Numbered from the stretch's first letter, positions 1-56,881 are shown. The stretch is DNA of 64,000 nt from a virus (IMGVR_UViG_2974778606_000001:1-64000), one strand, 5' to 3'. Translations and numbers: made by a program. Notes: a model not told the origin generated them from the letters alone.

Positions 1-608
1 ATGGGGGTATGTTCCGCGCCGGAACATAATGCTTCCCCCTCCCTATATAACCTAGCAGACACATCTGACCCCGAATCCAAGCAAAATAAGCCTTCCAAGC
101 ATCGAAATCAGCCCTGAAAAATGGCTCAAAAATGGGAAAAATCACGATATTTTGCCCCGAAATCGGACATTTCGCCCCTAAAATGGCCCAAAATCCCGCA
201 ATTTTGACAAGCATTCGTAAAGAGACCTGGACTCAAGGAAAATCAGCCCGCAATCCATCAAATCTAACCATCATATCCCTGGAAATATAGGCATTCATCG
301 TAAATGGGCCACCAATCCGAAGTCCAATCAGTCTGACAGACCTTAGACTCATCAGAATACCTCTGCGATTCATAGAAACAGACTTGAGATTCATTGTCAG
401 AGTGTCGATTCTCCCTATATACACAAGCAATAGATGATATTGAAAAGCCCGGCAGTTTCAAGAGGTCTTCGTAAATGAACTAGATAGATACACACCTATT
501 ATAGGTCTATGTATATAGGGGAGAGGGACACCCATAGCTACCGGGCCTTGTTAAGAATCATGAATCCAACATCGTTTATTGAGCATGTATATAGCAGCAG
601 ACAACACT

Positions 609-636
609 AAAGCCACCCCGAAGGGTGGCTGTTTTT
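609..636. terminator. Intrinsic terminator-like hairpin
   Basis: AGCCACCC-CGAA-GGGTGGCT (611-630) flanked by AAA and GTTTTT. Confidence 0.6.
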
Positions 637-936
637 GCACTCAAAAATCTCTGTAAAAATCTCAAAACTCCTGGGAATTTGACCCCTGACTTAAAGGGCG
701 AAATCCCTGGAAAATTTGAGGCCCATCGTAAATGGGGAAAAGTCGGACAACTCGGACAAATCGCTGTTGATATTGGCAGACATCGGGAAGTTAGTTAGAG
801 TAGGTAACGAACCGGGGCGGTCTGAAATTGAAAGGTCCCCAGGGAGCGGCCGACCTTCCGCTAATTAAGCCCTCGCCAGATTGACTGATAGGGCCCCTGG
901 GGACACACTTTGAACTACTCTTCTATGTTAGCAAGG

Positions 937-1188
937 TCACTCTGCCTTGTCAAGGTTACGGAGAGTTTCTCCGAACAGACGCTCTACCTCCCAGTCTTCC
1001 AAGAGATAGGCAGTGTAGGTGGGAGAGGGTACAGGGATACTGACAGACCTTCCCCACTTCTTTGCCGGTTCGTTCCACACCTTACCAACGAAAGAGTTGG
1101 GAGTGATACCCACCACCTTGAAGTAGAAGCTACCAGAGGCAACAAGGTTACCCATGGACAGTTCGATGCTTTCCTTTACCGGCTTCAT
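937..1188 (-). CDS. Hypothetical protein (leaderless)
   Basis: 83-aa ORF; ATG lies 6 nt after the TAGACT -10. Confidence 0.75.
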   Translation of the reverse strand: MKPVKESIELSMGNLVASGSFYFKVVGITPNSFVGKVWNEPAKKWGRSVSIPVPSPTYTAYLLEDWEVERLFGETLRNLDKAE

Positions 1189-1285
1189 GAGTAGAGTCTA
1201 TCAGTTCAAGGGTGGCCTGTCTACCCACCGGGCCGGGGCGGCCAAAATCCCCTAGGCCCGTAGGCCCAGGGGACTGGCTTGCTGC

Positions 1286-2308
1286 TTACGCAGCCTTGGC
1301 GAACTCCTGAACGGCCTTCAGGATTCGGTTCTTTTCGGTGTTGACCACCGGGTCGAAACCGGAAGCCGCAATGAACAGGTTGTCCACGTTGCCACCACGG
1401 GGCATCCGGTACCAGTCGATACGCTCGGTCAGAGCGTTCAGAGCACCGGCCGCAGTCCCCTGAAGAGACTGAGTGGTCTTCGGACCGTCGCCCGTGTCGG
1501 TGTAGATACCCATGGTCAGGTCACGCTTGGTCTCCCACTTGACCATGCTGCCCTTGACATCCTTCTCAGGCTTGGGGTACAGCGTGGCGAACAGCGTGTC
1601 GAACTGGTCCTTAGAGACCGGCACGTCAGCCAGACCCTGCATGACCCGCTCGAACTCATCCGCGTAGGCGAACGTGATGTTCAGAGCCTCACGAGCCGCA
1701 GCCATGCGACCCTCGATGGTCTGCGTGTGGCGCATCTTGAACTGCTGCTTCACACCGTTACGGAGTGCGAAGTTGAGCGTGTTCTGACACACGACACGAA
1801 CCGGAGTGATGGACGCCTGAACGGCCACGGAGCCGTCGTGAGAGGTGTTGACCAGAAGATACAGCTTGGTCACGTCGTCGTCACCGATGACGATGTCACG
1901 AGAGATGGACAGAGAACCGAACACCACGCGACCGTCACGGATGCTGCCAGCCGTCTCCCACGTGCCACCGCCCGCGAGGATGCCGTCACCGAAGCTGAAC
2001 AGCTCCTCGTTCTGAACGACCTTGTACCGCTCGCCCACGGTGGCCAGAACATCGTTCTGACCGGTGTTGAACGGGTTGTCACGGACGACCATGTAAGGCT
2101 CCGTGACGAAGTTGTACGAGTCGGAGAGCATGCCCACGATGTCCTTCACGGACTCCAGGCGGACGTTCCAGCCCTTCAGGTGGGCCAGCGTCAGCATCTC
2201 GTCGGTGGTCAGCTCACCCTCGAACACGGTTCCGAGGTTGTGCCACGCGGGCTCCTGGCGAGAAGCGAACGCGACCTGACCCTTGGAACCAATCTCAAGA
2301 CCGTGCAT
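1286..2308 (-). CDS. DUF932 / TIGR03299-family phage-plasmid protein
   Basis: Motifs PAWHNLG, YKVVQNEELF, ETAGSIRDGR, LLVNTSHDGS, TPVRVVCQNTL; GGAGG RBS. Confidence 0.85.
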   Translation of the reverse strand: MHGLEIGSKGQVAFASRQEPAWHNLGTVFEGELTTDEMLTLAHLKGWNVRLESVKDIVGMLSDSYNFVTEPYMVVRDNPFNTGQNDVLATVGERYKVVQNEELFSFGDGILAGGGTWETAGSIRDGRVVFGSLSISRDIVIGDDDVTKLYLLVNTSHDGSVAVQASITPVRVVCQNTLNFALRNGVKQQFKMRHTQTIEGRMAAAREALNITFAYADEFERVMQGLADVPVSKDQFDTLFATLYPKPEKDVKGSMVKWETKRDLTMGIYTDTGDGPKTTQSLQGTAAGALNALTERIDWYRMPRGGNVDNLFIAASGFDPVVNTEKNRILKAVQEFAKAA

Positions 2309-2499
2309 GTTGTGCCTCCAAAGGCAGAGTTGGTTGGGGCAGGTACTTCCCGCCCTTCGATGTCTCTAGTCTAGCAGTAGTCTGGGGCCGATGTCTACCC
2401 ACCTGGTGTGTCTGCAATGTCCGTTTTGCCCTTTATGTCCGGGCCGGGGCGGCCCAAAACACGAAAGCCCCTCCGAAGAGGGGCCACGTGCTGAGTCTC

Positions 2500-2988
2500 T
2501 TAGAACGGAGGCTCATCCGAGTAATTGGCCGGGAAAACGGACGGGCAGGGACCGTGCGGCTGCTCCAGAATCTCACGCTCCCAGTCGGCCAGACCGGCAG
2601 TCAGGTTCGTGACGTACACGTCCACGATGTCCTTCGACTCCTTGAGACCCAGACCTGTGGCGTTGCGCACGTCCTTGATGACCTGAATCTTGCGCTTGGT
2701 TCCGTGCTTCTGAACCGCGTCCCGCACGACTTCCGCAGCACGACGGAGCTGGAAGTTGTAGACGCGCTCCATCTTCTGGAACTCCCACTGCTCGGGCGTG
2801 GGGATGGAGGTCAGGGACTTGCCCACCTCGTGACCGGACGTGTAACCCTCGTCGTAGCCGTTGCTGTGGGCCTCTCGCACACCGGCCGTGTGCAGTTCCA
2901 TGATGTTGCGAGCGATGTGCATCGCCTCGTGCAAGGTCAGACCACCCGCACGCTCGGAAAGAATGTCGAGGATGTCACCGAGGTGCAT
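2500..2988 (-). CDS. Protein with ribosomal L7/L12 C-terminal-like domain
   Basis: KIQVIKDVRNATGLGLKESKDIVD closely matches the L7/L12 CTD helix motif. Confidence 0.75.
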   Translation of the reverse strand: MHLGDILDILSERAGGLTLHEAMHIARNIMELHTAGVREAHSNGYDEGYTSGHEVGKSLTSIPTPEQWEFQKMERVYNFQLRRAAEVVRDAVQKHGTKRKIQVIKDVRNATGLGLKESKDIVDVYVTNLTAGLADWEREILEQPHGPCPSVFPANYSDEPPF

Positions 2989-3114
2989 GTCAGCTCCGTT
3001 TCTCAGGGAGTCCGTCTCCCTTTCGATGTCTCTATCTTAGCAGTATCAGGGGGATGAGTACAACCCCTCATGCCGGGCCGGGGCGGCCCGAAGGCCCCCG
3101 AAGGGGCCAACGGA

Positions 3115-3549
3115 TTACCAGCGAACTCCCACACCGTTTCCGCTCAGGGACTCGATGATGGACTTTGCGGCACGCAGGTCCATCGTGGGGTAGGTCTCAC
3201 GCAGCTTCTTGATGCATCGAATCTTCCGCTCCAGGTCACGGTAGCTGAACTCGCCCTCGGCCCAGATGGAAGCCACGGCCACGAGCTTGGTGTGGTCGAT
3301 TTCGGCGGTGAAGGTGTTCAGACGCTCACCGTGAGCCTTGCCCTGCTGGTATCCGTCCTCGAAAGCGGCCTCCACACGACGGTCCGCCTCCTTACGGGCC
3401 ACGTCCCAGATGTTGTTCTCCACCTCGTTGAGGCGGTTCAGGTGGGCCTCGAAGATGATGCGAGCCACATCGAACGCCTTCTTGAGGCTCATCTTCACAC
3501 CGTTCCCGTTGAAGATACGCAGGATACGGGCCTCGTCGAACTCAAACAT
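3115..3549 (-). CDS. Paralog of the preceding gene, divergent L7/L12-CTD-like protein
   Basis: KIRCIKKLRETYPTMDLRAAKSIIE; shared N-terminal pattern (A..IARxIxExH, GYxxG); start moved to 3549 by GGAGG RBS. Confidence 0.65.
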   Translation of the reverse strand: MFEFDEARILRIFNGNGVKMSLKKAFDVARIIFEAHLNRLNEVENNIWDVARKEADRRVEAAFEDGYQQGKAHGERLNTFTAEIDHTKLVAVASIWAEGEFSYRDLERKIRCIKKLRETYPTMDLRAAKSIIESLSGNGVGVRW

Positions 3550-3677
3550 GGTCGCCTCCACTCTCTGGGGTATCTCCCCTTCGATGTACTAAGCTTAACA
3601 GGTCTAGCGGGCAGATACAAGCCCTTCAAAACAGGCCGGGGCGGCCCAACGGGCCCCGTGTCAAGGGGCCCGGCAGG

Positions 3678-4013
3678 TCAAGGGTTCGTGTGTCCCCTTT
3701 TCAGTAGGATTTGTTCGATGACGAATTTCGAATCCATCACTCGATTGTATTCGTCGTCTGAGCGGCTTTCCTTTCTGCCTGCCCATGCATTCAACAGGGA
3801 AATGATGAATTGGAACATCACCACCTGCACAGGCTCAGGATAGGTCGAAAGCAGATAGGCGAATGCATGAGGGTCGAATGACCGCTTATCCATTTCGTCA
3901 ATCAGCTTATTGGCCAGACGCTCATACGAGGTAGGCCGTGGTGTTACGAGTCGCGCACCCTCATACATGTCAGGTGCGATGATGCTTACTCGTTTGAACG
4001 GACTACGCGTCAC
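3678..4013 (-). CDS. Hypothetical protein
   Basis: GTG start with GGAGAGG RBS, overlapping the end of the upstream ORF. Confidence 0.65.
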   Translation of the reverse strand: MTRSPFKRVSIIAPDMYEGARLVTPRPTSYERLANKLIDEMDKRSFDPHAFAYLLSTYPEPVQVVMFQFIISLLNAWAGRKESRSDDEYNRVMDSKFVIEQILLKRGHTNP

Positions 4014-4170
4014 CCTCTCCCCCAAAATCCTTCGTTGTGCCGTATCCGTCTGAGACGCTGACAGACACCTCCAGGAACTTTGCCATGAACTCTGCCGTAG
4101 CAGTAGCAAAGGGCCAGGAGGTGTCGTGCGCGTCATCGTCCGGAATGTCCAGTTCGATGACGATGTTCAT
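4003..4170 (-). CDS. Small acidic protein (55 aa, leaderless; not in ORF track)
   Basis: MNIVIELDIPDDDAHDTSWPF...; TAGGAT-6nt-ATG. Confidence 0.6.
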   Translation of the reverse strand: MNIVIELDIPDDDAHDTSWPFATATAEFMAKFLEVSVSVSDGYGTTKDFGGEGDA

Positions 4171-4179
4171 GACTCTATC

Positions 4180-4698
4180 CTATCGGGTGTGAATCTCGAC
4201 GTCCATCCCCAGCACCACCGGGGAGCCACAGGAGCAGTGCGACAGGCTGTAACCGCACTTGCACGCCTCGCGCTCACTCAGAACGATTCGCTTGTTGCCG
4301 TACCAAGCGAAGTACTCAGTGCGAGACGAACGGGTCGGAGCAGCGTGCGGACGAACGTCCTTACCGGTGACCTTGACCTTGACACCGGGCGCAGCCGGGG
4401 TCACTTCCGGGTTGTCCGCCTTGTAAGCGGCCAGCACCTCAGCGGACAGACGGCCACGCGCGTTGACCTGGAGTCCCTTGGACTTTGCCCACGCACGGAC
4501 AGCCTTGGCATCGAACTGACCGGCCTTGGGAGCGGCCTTGACAGCAGCACGCTTGACAGGCGCGTCAGCGTCAGCGAAGACCATGCCATCGGCCTCAGCC
4601 TTGGCAATGGCTTCATAGGCAGCCTTGGACATGCGACCACGCGCATCCTTAGCGAGGTTCAGCGAAACGGCGTACGCGCGACGGGTCATGGCAGACAT
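4180..4698 (-). CDS. Lsr2-like DNA-binding protein
   Basis: AVRAWAKSKGLQVNARGRLSAEVLAAY is the Lsr2 AT-hook domain; second ARGRMS motif at the N-terminus; Cys-rich C-terminus. Confidence 0.8.
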   Translation of the reverse strand: MSAMTRRAYAVSLNLAKDARGRMSKAAYEAIAKAEADGMVFADADAPVKRAAVKAAPKAGQFDAKAVRAWAKSKGLQVNARGRLSAEVLAAYKADNPEVTPAAPGVKVKVTGKDVRPHAAPTRSSRTEYFAWYGNKRIVLSEREACKCGYSLSHCSCGSPVVLGMDVEIHTR

Positions 4699-4819
4699 TT
4701 GGGGTTCCTCTCCCTCGGTGATGTCTCTAGTCTAAGGCATTGAAGGGGGTCGAGTCAACACGTCTAAATGTCCGTTTTGCCCGACTTGTCGGGCCGGGGC
4801 GGCCCCGAAGGCCCCTTCC

Positions 4820-4876
4820 TTAGAACTTAGGACACTGGACGTGATGACCGTTTTTCTGGTAGCAGGAATCACACAT
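4820..4876 (-). CDS. Putative 18-aa Cys/His micropeptide
   Basis: MCDSCYQKNGHHVQCPKF; overlaps the upstream stop and ends just before the cassette hairpin. Confidence 0.35.
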   Translation of the reverse strand: MCDSCYQKNGHHVQCPKF

Positions 4877-5618
4877 TGTTGACCTTCTTTCTCCTAGGAA
4901 CCTTAGAAGCGAATCGCACATCGGCCTTGCCAAAGATGCAAAGACCACACGTGAAGCATGCACCACCCTTTTCGGTGATAAGGGGAATGCGCTTGGCATT
5001 CTCAGGGCAGATAGCGCCAGGCTTGCCAGTTTCAGCAAGCATGAATTCCTTGCCCTTGTCATGCGTTTCTGCCAAATAGGCCAGACGCACGCCCTTGTAT
5101 GTGTTTTTGACGTACAGGGCAGCATCCTCATTCTCACTGTCTACACTCAGGTAAACAGCAAGGTTTGGGATTCCATTGATATACGACACGAACTCAAAGG
5201 AACGTGTGTAAATCCAGAATTGCACGTCAGGAAACATGTAAGCAATCTTGTTGATTGCCATTGCGTAGTCCGCAGAGAAGATGTCACCATCCGCGTGCCA
5301 GCGGAATACCTTGCTGATGTTGAACCTTGCGCATTCCTGAGAGAATTCCGCAATCATCTCTCGCAGCAGGTCCACCATTTCACTGAGAGATGCATCTTTC
5401 AGCAATTCCCAATTGTGCAGTGCGAGTTCACGGAATGCCGGATACATCTTTTCCAGCTTACCGGCATAGCAGACGCCCTCACACACGCCGGTCGCGCCAG
5501 GGCAGGAAAATGCCTTACCGCTGGGCAGAGAGAATGCATTTTTGAGAAGGGACTGAGTACCTGCCTTGTTGACACGCGCAGTCGTCTTACGGTCATGCGA
5601 GCGCTTGAGCTTAGACAT
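4869..5618 (-). CDS. Phage gp88-family protein (Cys-rich, radical-SAM-like fold)
   Basis: FSLPSGKAFSCPGATGVCEGVCYAGK, FRWHADGDIF, FWIYTRS, C-terminal CP..C..C..C. Confidence 0.7.
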   Translation of the reverse strand: MSKLKRSHDRKTTARVNKAGTQSLLKNAFSLPSGKAFSCPGATGVCEGVCYAGKLEKMYPAFRELALHNWELLKDASLSEMVDLLREMIAEFSQECARFNISKVFRWHADGDIFSADYAMAINKIAYMFPDVQFWIYTRSFEFVSYINGIPNLAVYLSVDSENEDAALYVKNTYKGVRLAYLAETHDKGKEFMLAETGKPGAICPENAKRIPLITEKGGACFTCGLCIFGKADVRFASKVPRRKKVNNV

Positions 5619-5724
5619 GGCGGTCCTTTCGTTGACGTAAGACGAGTCTAGCAGACATGGGGGACGTAAACAAGCCTTTGAAATGTCCGATTTGTCTGAC
5701 CGCCCCGGCCCGAAGGCCGCTCAG

Positions 5725-6033
5725 TCAGGCAGCGCTACGTTCCTCCGAACGGCTGTAGGGAAGTTCCGTGTTACGAACAATGGTGCTGAGAGAAACAGCG
5801 TTGATTGTCTTGTGTCCCAGCAGCCAAGCCATAACCACTCGATGCTGACCATTGTAGACAGTGCCATTCTGGAAATTGATAGGCATCTGAATACCATCAC
5901 GCTCACAAGAGATGATGAAATCATCGCTCATCTCAAAGAACAGCCGAGTGAAAAGGTCCATCGTGCTCTCACCCTCCTCGCGGTCTGCGAAGTCGGCACG
6001 GGCAACGATTGCGTCTACACTCAGCGTCTTCAT
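5725..6033 (-). CDS. ParB/Srx N-terminal domain-like protein (leaderless)
   Basis: GIQMPI...VYNGQHRVVMAWLLG; promoter lies inside the longer ORF call, so start is MKTLSV at 6033. Confidence 0.7.
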   Translation of the reverse strand: MKTLSVDAIVARADFADREEGESTMDLFTRLFFEMSDDFIISCERDGIQMPINFQNGTVYNGQHRVVMAWLLGHKTINAVSLSTIVRNTELPYSRSEERSAA

Positions 6034-6140
6034 AGGGATGAGTCTAGCAGAGTACACAGTCATGCGCAAGACCTCAATTATGTCCGTTTTGTCTGGCCGG
6101 GGCGGCCTAAATGACTAAGGGCCCCGAAGGGGCCCGGTGG

Positions 6141-6218
6141 TCAGACGAACAGAACAGGAAGGCAGAGGAACACGACCAGCACGACGAACAGGACCATCAG
6201 AAATTCTTCAAGGTCCAT
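6141..6218 (-). CDS. 25-aa single-TM micropeptide
   Basis: MDLEEFLMVLFVVLVVFLCLPVLFV; GGAGG RBS; TAATG coupling. Confidence 0.6.
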   Translation of the reverse strand: MDLEEFLMVLFVVLVVFLCLPVLFV

Positions 6219-6289
6219 TACTCACACACCTCCCGGTACCAAGCGTAGTGCGTGTACAGATAGAAGTGAAGCCAAGTTGTGAAATACAT
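6218..6289 (-). CDS. 23-aa aromatic-rich micropeptide
   Basis: MYFTTWLHFYLYTHYAWYREVCE; AGGAG RBS. Confidence 0.5.
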   Translation of the reverse strand: MYFTTWLHFYLYTHYAWYREVCE

Positions 6290-6296
6290 GACGCTC

Positions 6297-6596
6297 CTAG
6301 AAGAGTTCCGGTCCCGATTCGCTGTCTTCCGTCCAGTCATCAGTATACTCGATGAACTCGACATTGAGCAACCATGCAATCAAGACGCGGTGATGCCCGT
6401 TGAAGACAGTGTTGGATTCGGGAAGATAGATGATGGGGTCAAGGATGCCACGGGTACACGAGTCGATGAACTCAGGATTGCCGATGAACAGGTCATCGAA
6501 CTTCTCTTCGAGCATCTGCATCGTGGTGTGGTCTTTGGCAACAGCATCATTGAAGATAGCCGACTCAATCAGCTTCGCAACAGATACCTTTGCCAT
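6297..6596 (-). CDS. ParB/Srx N-terminal domain-like protein (paralog)
   Basis: GILDPII...VFNGHHRVLIAWLL; AAGGAGG RBS. Confidence 0.7.
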   Translation of the reverse strand: MAKVSVAKLIESAIFNDAVAKDHTTMQMLEEKFDDLFIGNPEFIDSCTRGILDPIIYLPESNTVFNGHHRVLIAWLLNVEFIEYTDDWTEDSESGPELF

Positions 6597-6708
6597 GGCC
6601 CCTCCTTGGCTTGATAAGACTACTCTACACGACTACCGGGCCTGTTGTCTAGTGCTACAACAAAATGACCGGGGCGGCCCAAAGGGGCCCCGAAGGGCCC
6701 CGATTGAC

Positions 6709-6978
6709 TCAGTCGTCCAGTTCCTTGGACGAACGCAGCTCCGGACGCTTGAGCAGCGAGGGGTCAGCCATCTTGACCTTGCCCTTGGACCGACCGACCC
6801 GAACCATCGGGAAGTTCTTCAGAACGTCGTCCACGCGCCTGGCGTCGGCGTCGAAGATGTCGAATCGCTGGTACGGAGCCTTGGTTGCGATGTCACCGAA
6901 CTCCACATCGATGCCCTGCACGATGAGGGCGACCCGGAGGGAGAGGGACTGAGAGACGGGAACGATACCGGCACGCAT
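6709..6978 (-). CDS. Hypothetical protein
   Basis: 89 aa; AGGAG RBS; fills a cassette. Confidence 0.75.
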   Translation of the reverse strand: MRAGIVPVSQSLSLRVALIVQGIDVEFGDIATKAPYQRFDIFDADARRVDDVLKNFPMVRVGRSKGKVKMADPSLLKRPELRSSKELDD

Positions 6979-7108
6979 GTGAACTCCTGAGAGTCGAAGT
7001 AAGCTGGGGTATTCAGTTATCAGAGACTTTGGCAGGAAGGGAAAAACCTCACGTTGCGAGGCCCTGTGGCCTGTCCCCTTGTGCTTAGCTAGAGTCTAGC
7101 AGGCTGAC

Positions 7109-7249
7109 CTACTCGCAGTCAACCAGGTACTCGGGCTCGTCGTCCTCGGAGGTGGTCCACACGTCGGACAGCCAGCCCTTACGGTAGAGAACCGGACCCT
7201 CGGTAACCTCGTCCTCGTTACCGAACAGCATCGAGCGAAGGTCTTCCAT
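7109..7249 (-). CDS. Small acidic protein (46 aa)
   Basis: MEDLRSMLFG...; GAGGAG RBS downstream of its own promoter. Confidence 0.65.
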   Translation of the reverse strand: MEDLRSMLFGNEDEVTEGPVLYRKGWLSDVWTTSEDDEPEYLVDCE

Positions 7250-7364
7250 AACACTCTCCTCTCTCGGGGAGGTTTCCCTCCCTTTCGATGTTCTAAGTCT
7301 ACATGACGGATGCGACAGTGGCAAGCACCCATTTTGGGCCGGGGCGGCCCCGAAGGGCCTTTCG

Positions 7365-7520
7365 CTAGTCTCCCATGTCGTCCAAGTGGGCATCGGGCGC
7401 AGGCTCGAACTCAAGGAAGGTGTCTTCGAAAAGCACCATCCATGCGTAGCCCTCACGATTGTCCGGATTGCACTTGCCCGTGTGTATCTCACCCATGGGT
7501 GCACCGCAGTCCATGCACAT
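7365..7520 (-). CDS. Small CxxC/H/C zinc-finger-like protein (51 aa; not in ORF track)
   Basis: MCMDCGAPMGEIHTGKCNPD...; directly follows the upstream stop. Confidence 0.6.
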   Translation of the reverse strand: MCMDCGAPMGEIHTGKCNPDNREGYAWMVLFEDTFLEFEPAPDAHLDDMGD

Positions 7521-7522
7521 TC

Positions 7523-7741
7523 TCAGACTCCGTTCCACGGCATGGCCACGAACATGTCCACGTTCTTCGTGTGAATGGCGATGCGGTTGCCGTTCTGGTC
7601 GGTGAGGTTGAACAGCAGCTCACCAGTGTCCACCGCGAGGTTCCATGCGGTGTTCATGCTGTCGGGAGTGGTGTCCTTGACCAGAATCTCGATGAACTTG
7701 TCACGCATGGCGTAGTAGACACGAACACGAACACCGAACAT
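7523..7741 (-). CDS. Hypothetical protein
   Basis: MFGVRVRVYY...; GGAGG RBS. Confidence 0.7.
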   Translation of the reverse strand: MFGVRVRVYYAMRDKFIEILVKDTTPDSMNTAWNLAVDTGELLFNLTDQNGNRIAIHTKNVDMFVAMPWNGV

Positions 7742-7860
7742 GATTGCCTCCATTCTCAGGGAGATTTTCTCCCTTTCGATGACTCTAGTCTACATGACTG
7801 ATGAGACTTGCACAAGTGGGCCGGGGCGGCCCAAAGGGCCCCCGAAGGGGCCCAGTGGGA

Positions 7861-8142
7861 TTACTTCTTGACCTTGCGGCGGTTGCTGTGGTTGCCGTTC
7901 ATCAGGGCCGTGAAGTCCAGCATGATGTTCTGCTTGAAGTTGGTCGCTCCGTGGAACTTGCCGTCCTGGTCACGGATGACGATGCGAACTTCGGTGTTGT
8001 CGCTGCCCGGAGTGGTCTTCCAGGTCTCCAGCCGGATGCTGTAGGTGGCCTTGGAGCCCTTGACCTTGAAGCCCTCGGAGATGGCGACGGAGGAGACGAT
8101 GTTCTTGAACTCGGTGTCGGTGTTCTTCGCCAGAGAGACCAT
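7861..8142 (-). CDS. Hypothetical protein
   Basis: 93 aa; GAGGAG RBS; own cassette. Confidence 0.75.
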   Translation of the reverse strand: MVSLAKNTDTEFKNIVSSVAISEGFKVKGSKATYSIRLETWKTTPGSDNTEVRIVIRDQDGKFHGATNFKQNIMLDFTALMNGNHSNRRKVKK

Positions 8143-8287
8143 GAAAGCTCCTCAGAGTCTTAGCTTGGGGTTCCTTCCCCCTTGCTGATAGCTAAAGTCT
8201 ACACGACCCAAGGGACATCGTGCAACCCATCTAGCTACCGGAATTTTGGGCCGGGGCGGCCAAAAGGCCCCCGAAGGGGCCAGTTGG

Positions 8288-8572
8288 TCAGCCGTTCTCC
8301 TTTTCCTCCTGAGCCCTGCGCAGGTACGAAAGGTCTTCCAGAGTGCGAGAGATGGCGTTCAGCGTCTCATACGCTTCGGCCTTGCTGAAACCGATGTACC
8401 CACGGTCACCCGTGCCAGGTGCAGCCGAACCGCCCTCTACGAACACACGGTGAGCAATGCCCATGGAGGGCGTACCTTCCTGATAGGACAGCTCCAGCTC
8501 AATGCCCATGGCTTCCCAGTTGCGACGGTAACGCTCAAGAGCGGTGATGATGTCAGCCTTGGAAACGCGCAT
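8288..8572 (-). CDS. Hypothetical protein
   Basis: 94 aa; own cassette. Confidence 0.75.
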   Translation of the reverse strand: MRVSKADIITALERYRRNWEAMGIELELSYQEGTPSMGIAHRVFVEGGSAAPGTGDRGYIGFSKAEAYETLNAISRTLEDLSYLRRAQEEKENG

Positions 8573-8671
8573 TTGGGGTTCCTTCCCTCTCGGTGTAAGT
8601 AGAGTCTAACACAGTCCAGGGGCTGAGTACAACACCCAATTTAGGCCGGGGCGGCCCCGAAGGGCCTCCCG

Positions 8672-9001
8672 TTACTTCAGCTTGGCCAGAAGAGAGCTGA
8701 TTTCCTGCCGAAGCTCCGATTCCGGACGCAGGCCGCGCTCCTCCTTCATCATACGCTCGAAATACGCCTTCAGCTCCGTCTTGTTGTACGGACCGTACAC
8801 GCCCTTGTCAGTGGTGTAATTGATTTTCTCGAAGGGCATCGGGCAGGAGCAACCAGAGTCGCTTGCCACGTAGTAACGTCCTCGCGCTTCCTTCCACACC
8901 TGAGTGATGTTGAACTGCCAGCTCTCCTGGTCCCAGTCGAACGAACCGATGTACTCCAGGGAGTCAAGCAGGACGAGCGGAGGCTTCGAAATGTCGGTCA
9001 T
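8672..9001 (-). CDS. Hypothetical actinophage protein (SDSGCSCPMPFE motif)
   Basis: 109 aa; own cassette. Confidence 0.75.
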   Translation of the reverse strand: MTDISKPPLVLLDSLEYIGSFDWDQESWQFNITQVWKEARGRYYVASDSGCSCPMPFEKINYTTDKGVYGPYNKTELKAYFERMMKEERGLRPESELRQEISSLLAKLK

Positions 9002-9112
9002 GGCGTTCCCCTCTCGGATTTCTTAGTCATAGTCTAGCAGGCCGATTTTTTAGTCGCAAGCCCAAACTCAAGATTTTTAGTCTGGGCCGGGGCGGCCCCG
9101 AAGGGCCGACCC

Positions 9113-9424
9113 TCACTCATAGGGTCGGTATTCGTCCCAATCCGCTCCCTCGTGGTTTTCGAACTCGATACGAACCGTGTCGCCCAGACGGTGATTCACG
9201 CTCCAAATCTCTCGATTGGAGCCCTGGTAGCGCCTCTGAGCCTTGGCCCACTTGTAGGTCTTTTCAGCGCGCTTGCGGGAACGGTGCTGCCAGGATTCGA
9301 CACAAACACCGTAGTTGAACCAGCGCCCGCCCTCTTCCGGACCACCATAGGCACGGTCGATGAAGTAGACGTTGACCCAGTGCTTGTTCCGACGACGCTG
9401 ACCGGAACGAAGACGCTTAGCCAT
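9113..9424 (-). CDS. Hypothetical phage protein (AYGGPEEGGRWF motif)
   Basis: 103 aa; GGAGG RBS; own cassette. Confidence 0.75.
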   Translation of the reverse strand: MAKRLRSGQRRRNKHWVNVYFIDRAYGGPEEGGRWFNYGVCVESWQHRSRKRAEKTYKWAKAQRRYQGSNREIWSVNHRLGDTVRIEFENHEGADWDEYRPYE

Positions 9425-9532
9425 TTGGCCTCCCTTGTTGATGACCTAAGTCTAACAGAAGCCTAGGACAGACACAACATGCTTGCCAGGATATGTAAGC
9501 ATCGAACCGCCCCGGTCCAAAAAATTCAGCAT

Positions 9533-9596
9533 AAAATTCACCCCTGTTTTCAACAGGTTTTCCCTTAGAAATTCCTTGAAAACAGGGGTGAATTTT
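9533..9596. repeat. Perfect 21-bp inverted repeat with 22-nt spacer
   Basis: AAAATTCACCCCTGTTTTCAA (9533-9553) / TTGAAAACAGGGGTGAATTTT (9576-9596). Confidence 0.9.
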
Positions 9597-9618
9597 TTCT
9601 ATGAAGTTTTTTCGAAGG

Positions 9619-9831
9619 TCAGAAGGGCACGATTTCGTTACTTCCATCGCCACAAAGGCAATGTTTCGAGTGTCGCGCCCCAACGGGGGTCATTCCACTT
9701 TCCCGAAACCGAACAATCATGTTCGGAAAGGAAGAAGTGGACATTACGCCCGATTCGGTCCGCAGACCGGCCCTCTCAAGAATCAGAGAGCCGGAATGCG
9801 TGAATCGAGGGGCTTTCTTCTTTCGAAGCAT
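9619..9831 (-). CDS. Hypothetical protein
   Basis: 70 aa; G-rich RBS; follows the 9849-9992 ORF. Confidence 0.45.
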   Translation of the reverse strand: MLRKKKAPRFTHSGSLILERAGLRTESGVMSTSSFPNMIVRFRESGMTPVGARHSKHCLCGDGSNEIVPF

Positions 9832-9848
9832 GTTTGCCCCTTTTTACA

Positions 9849-9992
9849 TCAGACGAGTTCGGACATGTGCGGGTAGGCGTCCCAGTCGAAGCCGTCCACA
9901 CGGTCCGCATCCTGCACGTCCGAGGCAGGCAGTTCGATGGTGCTCAGAACGCCAGCGTCACGGGCCTGCTCAAGAAGGTCACGAAGGTCCAT
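9849..9992 (-). CDS. Small acidic protein (47 aa; not in ORF track)
   Basis: MDLRDLLEQARDAGVLSTIEL...; GAGG RBS; promoter at 10025-10053. Confidence 0.65.
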   Translation of the reverse strand: MDLRDLLEQARDAGVLSTIELPASDVQDADRVDGFDWDAYPHMSELV

Positions 9993-10140
9993 GGTGTGTA
10001 CTTCCTCTCGCTTGGTGTAGTACCAGTCTAGCCCATGGGATGGGTAGATGCAAGCACGTAAATCGTGGGAATTTTTTGAGGGCCTTCGTACACGCGCGGG
10101 GGAAATGTGGGGAATCTACGTAATGCCCCTTAAAAGAGGT

Positions 10141-10245
10141 CTATATGGGTATACCCCATATGGGTGATATGCACTATATGGGTAGGTATGCACCTATATG
10201 CCCTATATGTACCCATATGTACCAGTATGGGTAGGTATGTCCCCA
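10141..10245. repeat. ~10-bp periodic TATG-containing degenerate tandem repeat
   Basis: ctatatgggt/cccatatgggt/gatatgcac/tatatgggt/aggtatgcac/ctatatgccc/tatatgtacc/catatgtacc/agtatgggt/aggtatgtcc. Confidence 0.75.
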
Positions 10246-10411
10246 ATGTCCGTTTTGTCCACCCCAGATTTGAGGGTGTCCGATTTGCCCCATATGTCGG
10301 GCCGCCTCGGTTCGTTACCAATCCTTTACCTAGAATCTTGCTGAATCTAGGGTTTAGCCCCTGTGGAGCGGGTACTATGTAGGCATAGCCACTACACACC
10401 AGGGAGACACG

Positions 10412-10876
10412 ATGAACGCCACCGCCACCGCCCCGGTCACCACGCACAACGCTGACAACCACCAGTGCCGAGCAGATGAGCGCACGGCCGGTAGCAAGTA
10501 CCGTAGGCAGATGGTCGCTACCATCCTGTACCTTGCCTCCCTCACTGGCCACAGTGACGGTAAGACCTACGCTGTGTGTGTGGGTTGTGGTGAGAATGCC
10601 TACCTTGACCGTTCCCCCCGTGCTATGGACGCGTTCAACATGGGGCACGTGCAGAGTGACGCTACGGGTGGCACGTACTGTGTGGCCAACATGCTTCCCC
10701 TTTGCCGACAGTGCAACGCTGACATGGGCAGTGACCACATGATGGACGTTCTCATTCCTCTTTATGACAATCGGGACATGTGGGATGGCAAGCTGCTGCG
10801 TGACCCCGGCATGGTCAAGGAAGAGGCGCACGCGAACCGTGGCCGTGCCTCTTGGAAGCGCCCTGAGAGCGTCTGA
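10412..10876 (+). CDS. HNH endonuclease
   Basis: CVGC...GHV...GG...NMLPLCRQCN. Confidence 0.8.
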   Translation: MNATATAPVTTHNADNHQCRADERTAGSKYRRQMVATILYLASLTGHSDGKTYAVCVGCGENAYLDRSPRAMDAFNMGHVQSDATGGTYCVANMLPLCRQCNADMGSDHMMDVLIPLYDNRDMWDGKLLRDPGMVKEEAHANRGRASWKRPESV

Positions 10877-10883
10877 GACGCTT

Positions 10884-10922
10884 TTCTCCCCTCCCTGGGA
10901 GTGGTGGCCCAGGGAGGGGAGA
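10884..10922 (+). terminator. Hairpin after HNH gene
   Basis: TCTCCCCTCCCTGGG...CCCAGGGAGGGGAGA. Confidence 0.55.
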
Positions 10923-11106
10923 TAGGCCCGGAGACGGGCGCACAGGGCTTTTGAAAGCCGTTTTCAAATGGCCTGCCCGGCATCGTGGAACCTTCCCCGG
11001 AGAGTTTGTCAAGGGGTATGGGCGCACTATCTGAATTGTTACAAAGGTATGCGGAGCATGTATCATACAAATTCAAAAATTACTAACATTTGTGTGTACT
11101 TTTATG

Positions 11107-11340
11107 TTACTCTTCAGTAGCTTCGTCGCTCATATCGAATGACGGAGGCGGACCGAATATCTTTCCCATTTGGTGTCCAGCATAGATGACGTTCGCCTCA
11201 TTCGGACTTACCTTTCGTGCAATGACTGTCAGCATATCGTAGATACGCATAAGCAGAATTGTTTGTACTGTTTCTGCTACATTGTCATCGAATACGTCAG
11301 CTATATCTCTTTCTGTTTCATCATTCATTGAGGTCTCCAT
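11107..11340 (-). CDS. Hypothetical protein
   Basis: Overlaps the ThyX 3' end. Confidence 0.7.
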   Translation of the reverse strand: METSMNDETERDIADVFDDNVAETVQTILLMRIYDMLTVIARKVSPNEANVIYAGHQMGKIFGPPPSFDMSDEATEE

Positions 11341-12010
11341 ATGGTCTCATGGCTACCGGAAAGACTGGCTGAACCAGGTCTCTTACTGCCTGCGCATATT
11401 GCTGGATTTCTAGCTGTGCCTTGTGCTCAAGACGCTCTGATAGAAAGTGCAATACTGCTGCAAGGCTTGTAGTCCATCTCCAGCGTACATACATACCATA
11501 TGCGGGGAGGAATAGCCTTGCCTGTTCCGGCGCTAGATTGCTGTCAAGAGCAAGATGATATAGGTCTTCACCTCTTGCCAGAAATTCCTTTAGCATATCG
11601 GTATACTGCTGACTTGTTGCAGGGTCGGCATTTTCACCGCTTCCCTGCTTCTTGTTTTCCGGGGCCAGTCTCCATTCTGTTGGAATGTGATATACGGGCT
11701 CCTCGGTAATGTATCGCCTTGAAGACTCATTCCATCCTATCTGGTCATCAAGGTGTGTACTTGCAACGGTGTACTTCCACCACTGCCGGGCCACGAATAG
11801 TGGCGCATATACCTCAAAAGTCAATGTAGCATGACGAAAAGGAGAGTATTCCTTGTTTCTGACTAGGAAATTAATCAGTCTTTCATCCCTGTCAGAGAAC
11901 TCGGCACTCTCCTTTGCGTAACTTACCCTTGCTGCATTGACGATTGAGAGGTCTGAACCCATGTGGTCTACAAGTCTTACATAGCCTTGGTCCAAAACAT
12001 CAATCTTCAA
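11321..12010 (-). CDS. thyX: Flavin-dependent thymidylate synthase ThyX
   Basis: IVNAARVSY, SPFRH, APLFVARQW, WNESSRRY, PEQARLFLP, HKAQLEIQQYA. Confidence 0.93.
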   Translation of the reverse strand: MKIDVLDQGYVRLVDHMGSDLSIVNAARVSYAKESAEFSDRDERLINFLVRNKEYSPFRHATLTFEVYAPLFVARQWWKYTVASTHLDDQIGWNESSRRYITEEPVYHIPTEWRLAPENKKQGSGENADPATSQQYTDMLKEFLARGEDLYHLALDSNLAPEQARLFLPAYGMYVRWRWTTSLAAVLHFLSERLEHKAQLEIQQYAQAVRDLVQPVFPVAMRPYGDLNE

Positions 12011-13280: not shown

Positions 13281-13600
13281 ACGTTATTCCTGTCCAAGAT
13301 ATCGTGTATCTCTTCTGGGTCTACCTCTCCATCGTATTTGTCGAAGCTTCGTAGTTCACGAACCGCTTCCTTGTACCGGCGATTTTCTGTCAAGTAATTG
13401 TCAGCATCATTAGCCCACCGGTAAGCATCATTACGAAGTGCTAGGAACTTATCACGAGGAATCTCTTCATTGGGCAATATATCGAATTCAACCCAGACTG
13501 AGTACTCCTCTTCTGTCATTCCTAGAAACTCGTGGAGTGACAAACTGCTTTCGCTGTCATGCCACTTGTCCACGAGGTCTTCTAGTTGTCCTCTATTCAT
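13277..13600 (-). CDS. Hypothetical protein
   Basis: 107 aa; LHEFLGMTEEEY motif. Confidence 0.75.
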   Translation of the reverse strand: MNRGQLEDLVDKWHDSESSLSLHEFLGMTEEEYSVWVEFDILPNEEIPRDKFLALRNDAYRWANDADNYLTENRRYKEAVRELRSFDKYDGEVDPEEIHDILDRNNV

Positions 13601-13976
13601 GTCCCCAGTTTGTCACGCGCCGGGGACATTGTCAAGACGTGACACTGCCTTGTTCACCGTATTCACTGGGACATCTGTCCCCTTGATGTCACAAATCTGC
13701 TTGTGCAATTCTGTCCTGTCCGTGACACCTTGAGACCATAGCTCTCTGACCAGGGCGGACACTGATTTGTCACCTTGTCCTGTGACACTTTTTGTCACTG
13801 GGACAGGCTTTGTCACTGTATCGGTGACAGGGACATCAGGTGTCGTGACAGAAAATGTCTTGTCCTGGGACATGTCACTTGTCTTGTCACGCTTGTCCTT
13901 TTTGTCCTTCTTCGGTGTCACCTTGTCACCAGACTTTGTCCTCTCGATAGGTTGTCCTGTGACACCCGTGACAACC
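13586..13976. repeat. Dense intragenic TGTC/GACA (TGTCAC, TGTCC) motif cluster
   Basis: About 36 occurrences in ~380 bp, both orientations, several reading frames (manual count; ~3 expected). Confidence 0.85.
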
Positions 13977-24033: not shown

Positions 24034-25603
24034 TCGAGTTGTAGAGGCTGAGCCGGAAGAAGAGAGAGTAATTGAAGTCTCTCTAGGCAATGAATACAGT
24101 CGTGATATCAGTCACGACCCTGACCCATTCCTCAAGTCAGCCGATGAGCTGAACAAGAGCCTTGATGGTCTGTCTCGTTCATTCAAGATTCGCACCACGA
24201 AGCAAATCAATAAGTTCTATCGTGGTGTAGACGGTGCTGCCTCAAAGAAGGAAGAAAGTCAGGAAGTCACAGGATACAATGCCTTCCAGGTTATGCTTCC
24301 ACCATACAATCTCGATTATTTGGCAAAGCTTTATGAGGTTAGCTCCCCACACTATTCAGCAGTAAAGGCAAAGGTTTCCAACATTGTAGGTCTGGGATAT
24401 GACCTCGTGGAAACCCCTGCTGCCAAGCGCAAGCTTGACGAAATTGATGGTGAGGAGAAGGTAAAGAAGGCCCGGAAGAAGATTGCAGTTGAAAAGGAAC
24501 GCATCATGGAATGGATTGCGAGCTGCAATGAGGAAGACGATTTCCTAGAGACCCTTATCAAGGTATGGACTGACTATGAGGTAACCGGTAATGGATACCT
24601 TGAGGTAGGTCGAAAGACCAATGGCGAAATCGGTTACCTTGGCCACATTCCTTCAACCACCATGCGTATCCGACAGCGCAGGGACGGCTTTGTTCAGATT
24701 ATCTCTAACAAGGCTGTATTCTTCCGCAACTTCGGAGACAATGAGACAACGGACCCGGTAGGAAATGACCCAAGACCAAATGAAGTCATCCACATTAAGA
24801 AGTACGCTCCAAGCAATGGGTATTACGGAATCCCTGACATCGTGGCAGCTAAGGCTGCTGTTGCAGGTAATGAGTTCGCCACCCGATTCAACTTGGACTA
24901 TTTCGAGAACAAGGCGGTGCCACGATACGTCATCGTTATTAAGGGCGGCAAGCTTTCTCCAGCAGCAGAGAGAAGAATCACTGAATTCTTCCAGACTAGC
25001 CTAAAGGGAAAGAACCACAGGACTCTTTATGTTCCTCTGCCACCTGACGAGCAGGACCGTAAGACCAGCTTCGAAATGAAGCCAGTCGAGGCCGGTACTC
25101 AGGACAGCTCATTCAACAATTACCGCAAGGGGAACCTGAATGACATTCTCATGGCACATCGAGTTCCTATCACCAAGGTCGGTCTTGCAGAGGGAGCAAG
25201 TCTAGCAGTTGCACGAGATGCAGACAAGACATTTAAGGAACAGGTCTGTCGTCCAGAGCAGACCATTTTCGAAAACAAGCTTAACAAGGTCATCAAGGAA
25301 ATCACTGACGTATTCCTCATTCACCTCAATGAGCTTTCACTCACTGACGAGGATACTCAGAGCAAGATTGATGAGCGTGCAATTCGCAATCAGTGGACTA
25401 CTCCTAACGAGATTCGCGCTCGACAGGGTAAGCCAGGTCTTCCAGGTGGAGACAAGATTGTTGAGCAGAAGCCACAGCAGCAGGCAGAAGCCAGAGCACA
25501 GCAGGGTCAGACAAGGGCTCGTGATGCTGAGCGTTCAGCTAATGCTTCTGACAGTGCAGGAGAGGCGCGTCAACCAAAGGGAGAAGGTAGAGCCACAGCA
25601 TGA
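24023..25603 (+). CDS. Portal protein
   Basis: DYEVTGNGYLEV, EVIHIKKY...YYGIPD, YFENKAVP, ILMAHRVP, TPNEIR; AAGGAG RBS. Confidence 0.9.
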   Translation: MTSNRVVEAEPEEERVIEVSLGNEYSRDISHDPDPFLKSADELNKSLDGLSRSFKIRTTKQINKFYRGVDGAASKKEESQEVTGYNAFQVMLPPYNLDYLAKLYEVSSPHYSAVKAKVSNIVGLGYDLVETPAAKRKLDEIDGEEKVKKARKKIAVEKERIMEWIASCNEEDDFLETLIKVWTDYEVTGNGYLEVGRKTNGEIGYLGHIPSTTMRIRQRRDGFVQIISNKAVFFRNFGDNETTDPVGNDPRPNEVIHIKKYAPSNGYYGIPDIVAAKAAVAGNEFATRFNLDYFENKAVPRYVIVIKGGKLSPAAERRITEFFQTSLKGKNHRTLYVPLPPDEQDRKTSFEMKPVEAGTQDSSFNNYRKGNLNDILMAHRVPITKVGLAEGASLAVARDADKTFKEQVCRPEQTIFENKLNKVIKEITDVFLIHLNELSLTDEDTQSKIDERAIRNQWTTPNEIRARQGKPGLPGGDKIVEQKPQQQAEARAQQGQTRARDAERSANASDSAGEARQPKGEGRATA

Positions 25604-55886: not shown

Positions 55887-56881
55887 TCATTCAGGGCATT
55901 GGTGTAGAGGTGGAAGGCGAGACGGGAAACGACTTTTTGTGCTACTGCCCATTTCACGGTAACACGGATACCCCAAGCTTCTCCGTCTCAAAGCGTAATG
56001 GTACGTATATCTGCTTCAATGCTGCCTGCGCAGAACAGGGTAATCTGACTGGTCTGGTGCAGCGTATGAGAAAGTGCAATGTGATGGAGGCACTGCGCTT
56101 CATCACTAAGCACAAGGAAAGCAAGCACGTTACGCTTGCTGAGCGTCGGAAGAAGAGGGCTCTGAGTGCAGGAGATTTCACAATCTTTCCTGACGAGCCA
56201 TTCAACCGAATGTATGAAGATTTCTGGAAGTATCCAGAGGCTGTAAGGTACATGGTGGAGGACAGAGGATTCGAAGAGGAAACTCTCGAACACTTCCGAA
56301 TTGGTTATTCTGTAAAGAACGACATGGTAATTGTTCCCATGCATTCTCCTGATGGAAAGCACGTGGGTCTGATTGGTCGTTCAATTGAGGGTAAGCGATT
56401 CAAGAATTCACCAGGTCTTCCTGTTTCACGAACCATGTGGAATCTGAACAGGGCAAGGGCGGCCGGTGATGCAGTAGTAGTTACTGAAGCATCGTTCGAC
56501 AGTATGAGAGTCCATCAAGCTGGTTATCCCTGTACGGTAGCTTTGCTAGGTGGTCACCTCAGTACAATCCATATTGAGCTGTTCAACAGGTACTTCAACA
56601 CTATCATCATCATGACTGATTTTGATAATAAGGAAGACCACATTTCTCCAGTATGTAAGAAATGTCGTGGTAAGTGTACAGGTCACAATCCAGGACGAGA
56701 CCTTGGAAAGGCCATTGCAGAGGCGCTTCCTCGAAAGAGGATTAAGTGGGCCTCGTATGGCTACAAAGAGGTTTATCCTAATGCAGCAAAGGATGCTGGC
56801 GCTCTGGATGACAAGGAAATCAAAGCCTGTATTCAGGGTGCAGTCTCCAACTTTGAGTACCGCAGGTGGGGCTTGTACTAA
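55817..56881 (+). CDS. dnaG: DnaG-like primase
   Basis: CPFH..TPSF...C...C zinc finger; TOPRIM TEASFDS, MTDFD, KDAG. Confidence 0.9.
   Translation: MGNSWDSEWSNGLNDYTAEQIEVVIQGIGVEVEGETGNDFLCYCPFHGNTDTPSFSVSKRNGTYICFNAACAEQGNLTGLVQRMRKCNVMEALRFITKHKESKHVTLAERRKKRALSAGDFTIFPDEPFNRMYEDFWKYPEAVRYMVEDRGFEEETLEHFRIGYSVKNDMVIVPMHSPDGKHVGLIGRSIEGKRFKNSPGLPVSRTMWNLNRARAAGDAVVVTEASFDSMRVHQAGYPCTVALLGGHLSTIHIELFNRYFNTIIIMTDFDNKEDHISPVCKKCRGKCTGHNPGRDLGKAIAEALPRKRIKWASYGYKEVYPNAAKDAGALDDKEIKACIQGAVSNFEYRRWGLY

Follow-up and report, generated by a model that had tools for sequence, protein, structure and literature searches.

Turnover of host-takeover and counter-defence genes is a feature of phage early regions described as 'hyperplastic', and how genes enter and leave such regions without wrecking expression is only partly understood; the main proposal is the model of promoter-early stem-loop (PeSL) cassettes of T4-type phages (Arbiol et al. 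2010, PMC2839356; Comeau et al. 2014, PMC4122927). The analysis presented here concerns an array of small gene cassettes in the first 11 kb of a 64,000-nucleotide stretch of a Streptomyces phage (IMGVR_UViG_2974778606_000001:1-64000, hereafter the window), in which a 13-bp GC-rich palindrome, called the box (GGCCGCCCCGGCC on the sense, i.e. minus, strand), stands between terminator hairpin and promoter. We tentatively read the box as primarily a site recognised as double-stranded DNA, most probably by a dimeric, sequence-specific protein that acts on all early promoters in common. Cassettes are lost, gained or swapped with the break in the box, but this recombination is probably a secondary consequence of the repetition of the box.

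As far as sequence can tell, the locus resembles PeSLs in that reiterated modules of a terminator and a host-sigma early promoter stand between small early genes, most of them orphans, and the region is plastic. In both systems the modules are where relatives differ by indels and replacements, and recombination of flanking modules drops a cassette and leaves one chimeric module. The analogy, already drawn in a first-pass annotation of the window, proved apt: composite terminator-promoter modules keep the small early genes insulated and are also the points of exchange. On the other hand, in PeSLs the stretch before the -35 element is AT-rich, a separate conserved box is absent and the stem-loop lies at various places within the promoter, whereas here the hairpin always precedes the box. 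What is new in comparison with PeSLs is this separate GC-rich palindrome upstream of -35, which is lineage-specific, the most conserved part of the module and itself the crossover point; the setting also differs, with a high-G+C actinobacterial host, a siphovirus and an array inside a long terminal repeat. The array is therefore an independent case in actinobacteriophages with a sharper landmark, a 13-bp box that served as the crossover in several natural events, and more than 80 sequenced relatives let such events be counted.

The stoperators of cluster A mycobacteriophages and R4-like Streptomyces phages (PMC6550527, PMC9283540, PMC10276819) are likewise sites of 13-14 bp in many copies, mostly in short intergenic gaps and predominantly in one orientation relative to transcription, and each phage lineage has its own consensus, which in stoperators tracks the repressor. 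However, stoperators are asymmetric, genome-wide and bound by the monomeric immunity repressor of temperate phages, whereas the box is (pseudo)palindromic, found only in the terminal repeat, and carried by a phage for which neither an integrase nor an immunity repressor is annotated; the related phage Coruscant is predicted to be virulent. In the early region of phiC31, Ingham, Smith and co-workers (1994-95) reportedly described conserved inverted repeats, which are repressor operators, and terminators lacking poly-U. Our locus shares with it a Streptomyces phage background, conserved intergenic inverted repeats and GC hairpin terminators often without U tails. But phiC31 is temperate, its ~17-bp repeats are bound by a known repressor and do not resemble the box in sequence, and its early promoters differ from the housekeeping type. 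The early regions of SPO1 and T5 lie in long terminal repeats with an operon layout of many short units, and we know of no equivalent conserved palindromic box described there. The ~11-kb direct terminal repeat (DTR) analysed here is similarly packed with small early genes in short units with host-type promoters, although there is no sequence relationship; the lengths of the SPO1 and T5 repeats are cited in PMC5764925.

Integron attC cassettes, finally, are also gene cassettes bounded by imperfect palindromes. The attC sites are 55-140 nt long and are recombined as folded single strands by the tyrosine recombinase IntI, and their cassettes are promoterless. Here, in contrast, the cassettes have their own promoters, the site is 13 bp long and there is no integrase among the proteins of the repeat or in the annotation of a close relative.

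The cassette array and its box

The window comprises bases 1-64,000 of a 132,885-bp virus record classed as having DTRs. The region is matched by 86 Streptomyces phages, every one of which belongs to actinobacteriophage cluster BE, the nearest being Anedea and Riptide (~92% identity); the window is the left 64 kb of a cluster BE1 phage genome. Each of the 11 exact boxes has a counterpart at +121,822, and the DTR is therefore ~11,063 bp long, the published length for BE1 phages being ~11 kb (PMC5764925). The G+C content is 51-59% in the DTR and 46-51% in the remaining window. The left repeats of 16 relatives were compared, making 17 phages with the window phage. The limits of the array are set by two features.

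1-11063, no strand: left DTR copy, from the recurrence of the exact boxes at +121,822 and composition
10412-10876, plus strand: HNH endonuclease gene, divergent from the array and not among its cassettes, kept at the same place in all relatives compared

Within the repeat, the array appears to be the early ('host-takeover'-type) transcription region of a cluster BE phage. The exact 13-mer GGCCGNNNCGGCC occurs 11 times in the window against 0.04 expected by chance, always as GGCCGGGGCGGCC on the plus strand and always within 1,231-9,097. A scan allowing up to two mismatches adds the inverted copy at 5698-5710 and the copy at 6667-6679 (one mismatch each), besides one unrelated two-mismatch match at 56,452. 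With three degenerate copies that keep the core CCG-NNN-CGG, the total is 16, all within 810-10,312 and all intergenic. The count, the intergenic placement and the limitation to the first ~11 kb given by the first-pass annotation all hold: beyond the repeat, neither the other 53 kb of the window nor the unique part of ~110 kb contains a box, and the exact copies in the genome number 22, 11 per terminal repeat. Of the core CCGNNNCGG there are 25 copies in the 11-kb repeat against three in the rest of the window. When the alignment is anchored on the box, all 13 positions, the unpaired core included, are at maximal information, and the flanking hairpin and -35 element are far less conserved, which makes the box the most information-rich part of the intergenic module. 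Full-text literature searches with the box sequences and with descriptions of the BE cluster returned no earlier account of the motif. The box fits the SfiI recognition pattern GGCC-N5-GGCC and the version of Coruscant holds GGCGCC, which we take to be a chance property of GC palindromes.

10300-10312, minus strand: degenerate box AACCGAGGCGGCC, the outermost copy, upstream of the first early promoter
9505-9517, minus strand: degenerate inverted box GACCGGGGCGGTT, after hairpin and U tract
9085-9097, minus strand: exact box, overlapping the 3' arm of hairpin GGCCCTTCGGGGCC
8644-8656, minus strand: exact box, 4-nt overlap with hairpin 8653-8666
8249-8261, minus strand: exact box, after hairpin 8266-8281 and 4 nt (UUUU)
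7819-7831, minus strand: exact box, 4 nt past hairpin 7836-7853; copy at the deletion junction of Anedea and Riptide
7337-7349, minus strand: exact box, overlapping hairpin 7346-7359; second copy of the same deletion junction
6667-6679, minus strand: one-mismatch box GGCCGCCCCGGTC, 4 nt past hairpin 6684-6701
6095-6107, minus strand: exact box, 11 nt past hairpin 6119-6135, followed by AGACAAAACGGACAT
5698-5710, minus strand: inverted one-mismatch box GGCCGGGGCGGTC, resembling the version of other BE1 phages
4792-4804, minus strand: exact box, overlapping a weak UUCG-type hairpin and followed by two GACA-type half-site repeats
3634-3646, minus strand: exact box, 3 nt past hairpin 3650-3672
3076-3088, minus strand: exact box, 4 nt past hairpin 3093-3108
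2442-2454, minus strand: exact box, after hairpin 2467-2484 and 12 U-rich nt, followed by CGGACA...AAACGGACAT
1231-1243, minus strand: exact box, immediately after a long hairpin and UUUU
810-822, minus strand: degenerate box GACCGCCCCGGTT, after the last gene's hairpin and a U-rich tract

Extra GACA/CGGACA half-site repeats thus adjoin some of the boxes. The two outermost boxes share an extension (GGTAACGAACCG...): 803-822 and 10300-10319 match at 18 of 20 positions as reverse complements, so that inverted extended boxes flank the entire 9.5-kb array, and in the relatives the box plus (G)TTACC is kept at both ends of the array.

The order of a unit on the minus strand, proposed as promoter, leader, one to three genes, cUUCGg hairpin and box, was borne out. 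Sixteen early promoters were located by sequence scan, with the form T(T/A)Gnnn-17/18-TA(G/A)(A/G)(C/A/G)T, mostly TAGACT and often with TGn before the -10 element.

10025-10053, 9449-9477, 9031-9059, 8603-8632, 8196-8225, 7787-7815, 7296-7324 and 7093-7122, minus strand: first eight early promoters
6622-6651, 6041-6069, 5645-5673, 4729-4758, 3592-3620, 3034-3063, 2368-2397 and 1195-1223, minus strand: last eight early promoters

These promoters are apparently of the host housekeeping type (TTGnnn-17/18-TAGACT, often with extended -10). Outside the repeat the scan gives scattered single matches at about chance level (one TAGACT, at 25227), and both the box and the TAGACT promoter class are restricted to the repeat. 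A box lies 5-70 bp upstream of 14 of the 16 promoters; the picture of one box per unit therefore applies to most of the array, the exceptions being the promoters at 10053 and 7122. The hairpins of the units, mostly with a cUUCGg loop, end anywhere from 5 nt inside the box to 12 nt before it, and around half of the units have a short U tract between the two.

Lineage versions and a proposed operator-like role

Of the 17 phages, three have the exact 13-mer: the window phage, Anedea and Riptide. In the corresponding gaps other BE1 phages carry (T)GTCCG-NNN-CGGAC(A), whose core varies freely (GCC, GGG, GGT, CCC, GGC and others), and also hybrid boxes such as GGCCGCCCCGGAC. In BE2 phages the version is CCGCCCCGG, with flanks of low symmetry and another palindrome, AAAGATCTT, after it, and Coruscant has (T)GGCGC-CCG-GCGCC(A), followed by TAGATG-N7-CATCTA. 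The nearly invariant asymmetric 3-bp core noted in the first-pass annotation is accordingly a property of this lineage and of BE2, and not of the other BE1 phages. Alignment of orthologous gaps shows that site-specific flanks are retained and the box is swapped for the version of the lineage. At site 5698 the window keeps the older form, still ancestral-like, where Anedea and Riptide have the lineage consensus, which points to stepwise homogenisation to one recognition sequence. The box is, on this comparison, a short element under concerted evolution across many sites, a pattern familiar from operator-like sites tracking a cognate protein, such as stoperators.

The inverted repeats between box and -35 element, TAGATG-N7-CATCTA in Coruscant and (TC)AAAAGATCTT(GA) in BE2, give each of these two lineages its own pair of palindromes upstream of the early promoters.

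Spacing, taken as the distance from box centre to -10 element, is 53 bp at eight of nine promoters in Coruscant and either 52-53 or 44-45 bp at most promoters in BE2. In the window it is 57, 55, 42, 54, 33, 42, 46, 55, 54, 64, 43, 43, 75 and 37 bp, with a periodicity of ~10.6 bp (Rayleigh R 0.64, p ~0.014 after scanning periods), and the phasing is stronger in Anedea, MulchMansion and Mildred21 than in the window. Helical phasing of the box to -10 is suggestive only.

The lineage versions, the half-site repeats, the fixed or phased promoter distance and the restriction to one early promoter class make the proposed operator for a dimeric protein plausible, but no more than plausible. Each module consists of a GC hairpin terminator, the 13-bp box, a housekeeping-type promoter and a leader. 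A dimeric protein binding to the boxes would shut off or activate the early promoters together; the box specificity would have drifted between phage lineages, all sites moving along; and the box is also where short-homology recombination deletes, duplicates or swaps cassettes. The unit anatomy, the versions of the lineages, the spacing and the crossovers in the box are observed; protein binding, the regulatory effect and the status of recombination as a by-product rather than the selected function are what we infer. If correct, the lineage-specific box predicts a regulator of early transcription in large lytic Streptomyces phages. In practice, the box-promoter-terminator module could be a natural insulated expression unit for Streptomyces, with the boxes as engineering sites for cargo swaps.

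Several observations weigh against an operator. No protein that binds the box has been identified: the proteins of the repeat include none with an evident helix-turn-helix, and no repressor is annotated; outside the repeat there are two helix-turn-helix proteins. By sequence, promoters 10053 and 7122 lack an adjoining box, and no early-type promoter was detected downstream of box 810-822. The core is heavily biased to sense-strand CCC in this lineage and in BE2, which a symmetric dimer does not require. As to spacing, the distance is variable in BE1, the two BE2 classes are 8-9 bp apart and not 10.5, the phasing test is weak or fails in Angela, Jay2Jay and Paradiddles (partly through mis-called boxes), and its orthologous sites are non-independent samples. 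Lastly, in every lineage the box lies -7 to ~+11 nt from the terminator hairpin, which fits a terminator-linked role too, and in the window phage the box can by itself fold as a stable hairpin (-4 to -10 kcal/mol).

The last two points are at the same time the basis of an RNA explanation, in which the transcribed box forms a second GC hairpin of 5-6 bp with a 3-nt loop after the terminator, as a fail-safe terminator or 3'-end protector, and its conservation is only apparent and results from homogenising recombination between modules. We consider this unlikely. The box hairpin is present in most minimum-energy folds, and the arms change complementarily between lineages (GGCCG/CGGCC, GTCCG/CGGAC, GGCGC/GCGCC, TAGCCG/CGGCTA). 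The loop varies freely in the other BE1 phages; the first-pass annotation had named a freely changeable loop as the mark of a motif acting only within an RNA terminator, but such a core fits a hairpin loop and the spacer of a dimer site alike. The non-Watson-Crick combinations at arm pair 4 in BE2, 12 G-U against two A-C, would favour RNA pairing; the T behind these G-U pairs, however, belongs to the neighbouring TCAAAAGATCTTGA element, and the bias is explained by the adjacent AAAGATCTT. Pairing itself is limited in BE2 and in the other BE1 phages. In the former, only 3-4 bp are pairable, with Watson-Crick pairing at arm pair 5 in 7 of 34 distinct boxes; in the latter, 7 of 30 distinct boxes have G/A at arm pair 4, and the G/A-mismatched hybrid GGCCG...CGGAC is retained at the same sites in several phages. 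The stems and loop of the box are identical among copies, yet the neighbouring real terminator stems vary, which counts against a hairpin role. Moreover, the U tract found in about half of the units precedes the box, so that canonical termination would precede it too; the six GC hairpins elsewhere in the genome all lack a box, four of them being followed by a U-rich tract; and the distance to -10 is fixed in Coruscant and most of BE2. The box itself as an intrinsic terminator was rejected, since the sequence that follows its hairpin is C/A-rich and the U tract, where present, comes before it.

Cassette turnover at the box

Gene-family order maps of the 17 phages show a conserved backbone order with losses, gains, replacements and duplications; cassette content varies among relatives, and some order changes between BE1 and BE2. 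Among 96 large pairwise gaps, 23% of the breakpoints lie within 20 bp of a box centre as against 6% for random positions, the genome pairs overlapping and being non-independent; further peaks occur at the hairpin and at the promoter/leader. At the nucleotide level, four independent whole-cassette indels switch from left to right copy inside the box, with 10-17 nt shared. Anedea and Riptide lack the window cassette between boxes 7819-7831 and 7337-7349 (shared GGGCCGCCCCGGCCCA); the others separate Enygma and StarPlatinum from Karimac and Genie2 (shared CCGCCCCGGT), Daubenski from Angela, MulchMansion and Mildred21 (shared GGCCCGGACA), and Enygma and Genie2 from StarPlatinum and Karimac (shared AGCCGCCCCGG). 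The Anedea/Riptide joint (7334->7817) is also found in metagenome contigs of two studies, where 16 nt fit both sides. Other joints in metagenome contigs were not counted, as their sides are short and their likeness is 88%, and they may stem from other relatives or from repeated hairpins; the best of the sequencing runs contain at most 0.21 of the sequence words, all as assembled contigs, and no RNA run is listed among them. Several replacements start at the edge of a box: in the swap between the window and Anedea at 6148-6662, homology stops 5 nt downstream of box 6667-6679, and a swap between Paradiddles and Mildred21 spans one box to the right arm of the next. As for the remaining indels, one has its crossover in the promoter/leader, one is a coding-region fusion and one is without a clear junction.

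The comparison of relatives that the first-pass annotation had named as a check, with its variable cassette content and its breakpoints near the box, thus gives substance to the suggestion that the box is a recombination joint, but not to its integron-like form. A site dedicated to excising, capturing and reordering cassettes, either site-specific or stimulated by a nuclease (integron-like or driven by one of the HNH enzymes of the phage), would explain why four independent indels cross over precisely in the box on as few as 10-11 shared nt, and also the box-to-box replacement, the variable content and the differing order of BE1 and BE2, and it could draw on the inverted extended boxes around the array and on the conserved HNH gene beside it. 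Nevertheless, we regard it as distinctly unlikely. The first-pass annotation saw no recombinase, and none is present among the proteins of the repeat; no integrase, serine recombinase or transposase is annotated in the whole genome of the close relative Riptide, in which a RecA-like recombinase, two resolvases, a Cas4-type exonuclease and a DprA-like protein are. Other junctions lie in promoter/leader and coding sequence, the backbone order is conserved across the 17 phages, shared repeats of 10-17 nt suffice for homology-dependent deletion, and the fixed or phased promoter distance is left unexplained. The 10-17 bp of junction identity, the junctions elsewhere and this enzyme inventory fit short-homology recombination as proposed for PeSLs, and the box is the place of crossover because it is the longest identical repeat between otherwise unrelated cassettes.

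A combination of both roles, in which a phage-encoded, co-evolving factor binds the box, co-regulates the early promoters and also marks or cleaves the DNA for preferential cassette exchange there, seems quite improbable; if true, a phage would here carry, within a terminal repeat, a cassette-exchange system that regulates itself and differs from both integrons and PeSLs.

The restriction of the box to the terminal repeat and the predominance of one orientation in this lineage could also suit another repeat-linked role of the DNA, such as loading of an FtsK/TraB-like translocase, T5-like nick sites, or signals for stepwise DNA entry or packaging. The phage does encode an FtsK-like translocase and several HNH endonucleases, and GACCCGGA in the boxes of some relatives matches a plasmid TraB recognition word, which we take as a lead only. 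This role is nonetheless very improbable, given the strictly intergenic placement in register with terminators and promoters, the free orientation in other BE1 phages and the location of the translocase gene in the unique part, outside the repeat. Chi-like end protection, cruciform extrusion and a GC 'clamp' for termination were dropped for their poor fit to the exact conservation and intergenic register of the box.

Cargo genes, leaders and flanking repeats

Most of the cargo proteins have no Pfam family, and the genes, all on the minus strand, are mostly unrelated.

9849-9992, 9619-9831, 8288-8572, 7861-8142, 7523-7753, 7365-7520, 7109-7249 and 6709-6978, minus strand: cargo genes without a named family
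4003-4170, 3678-4013, 3115-3549 and 937-1188, minus strand: further cargo genes without a named family
9113-9424, minus strand: basic protein gene, universal among the phages compared
8672-9001, minus strand: DUF7574 gene
6297-6596 and 5725-6033, minus strand: ParB-N-like genes, by annotation in relatives
4869-5618, minus strand: GP88 gene
4180-4698, minus strand: Lsr2 DNA-binding domain gene
2500-2988, minus strand: L7/L12 C-terminal domain gene
1286-2308, minus strand: DUF932 gene

A protein atlas look-up of the 9113-9424 product returned only unnamed viral clusters with scores below 0.8. The adjacent cassettes 2500-2988 and 3115-3549 encode paralogues, one with a clear ribosomal L7/L12 C-terminal domain (Pfam E 6e-10), and each of the 17 phages has members of this family, frequently two.

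The leaders of promoters 7815, 7324, 3620, 3063 and 2397 begin with AUCGAA(A)GGG and form a 5'-proximal hairpin of -9.5 to -19 kcal/mol with compensatory changes in the stem (GGGAGA/UCUCCC, GGGAGG/CCUCCC, GGGG/CCCC, GGGCGGG/CCUGCCC), which may be a shared element of mRNA stability or translation; Rfam gave no family in 1-11,500 at gathering thresholds. The genes starting at 6033 and 1188 begin 0-1 nt from the transcription starts predicted for promoters 6069 and 1223, and their mRNAs are therefore probably leaderless. Promoter 7122 (TTGACT-18-TAGACT), which has neither hairpin nor box, is embedded in the upstream gene at its 3' end and is followed by a structured leader of 108 nt (-26 kcal/mol; region 6979-7122) and the gene 6709-6978. 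On the plus strand, a promoter-like site at 773-802 (TTGGCA-17-TAGAGT), possibly due to chance, points rightward into the array, antisense, directly before the box at 803-822.

Repeats of other kinds are located around the array. The terminal 800 bp (1-800) are non-coding and contain repeated units of ~40 nt (CCATTTACGATG...AAATTTTCCAGGGATTT) in at least three copies, together with TGTCCGA words, which may serve as signals for packaging or for recognition of the end. Another non-coding stretch, 10130-10300, lies between the divergent HNH gene and the first early promoter. It is dense in short repeats of the CATATGGG / CCCATAT(A/G) type and in GGACA words and resembles iterons or an array of protein-binding sites, and stretches like it occur in Coruscant and BE2. 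Beyond the repeat, at ~13,600-13,950 (3' half of a minus-strand gene), GTGACA/TGTCAC and GGACA/TGTCC words are dense in and beyond a membrane-protein gene; 19 of the 45 GTGACA words of the window fall in one 2-kb bin there, and GGACA is also the box half-site of other BE1 phages.

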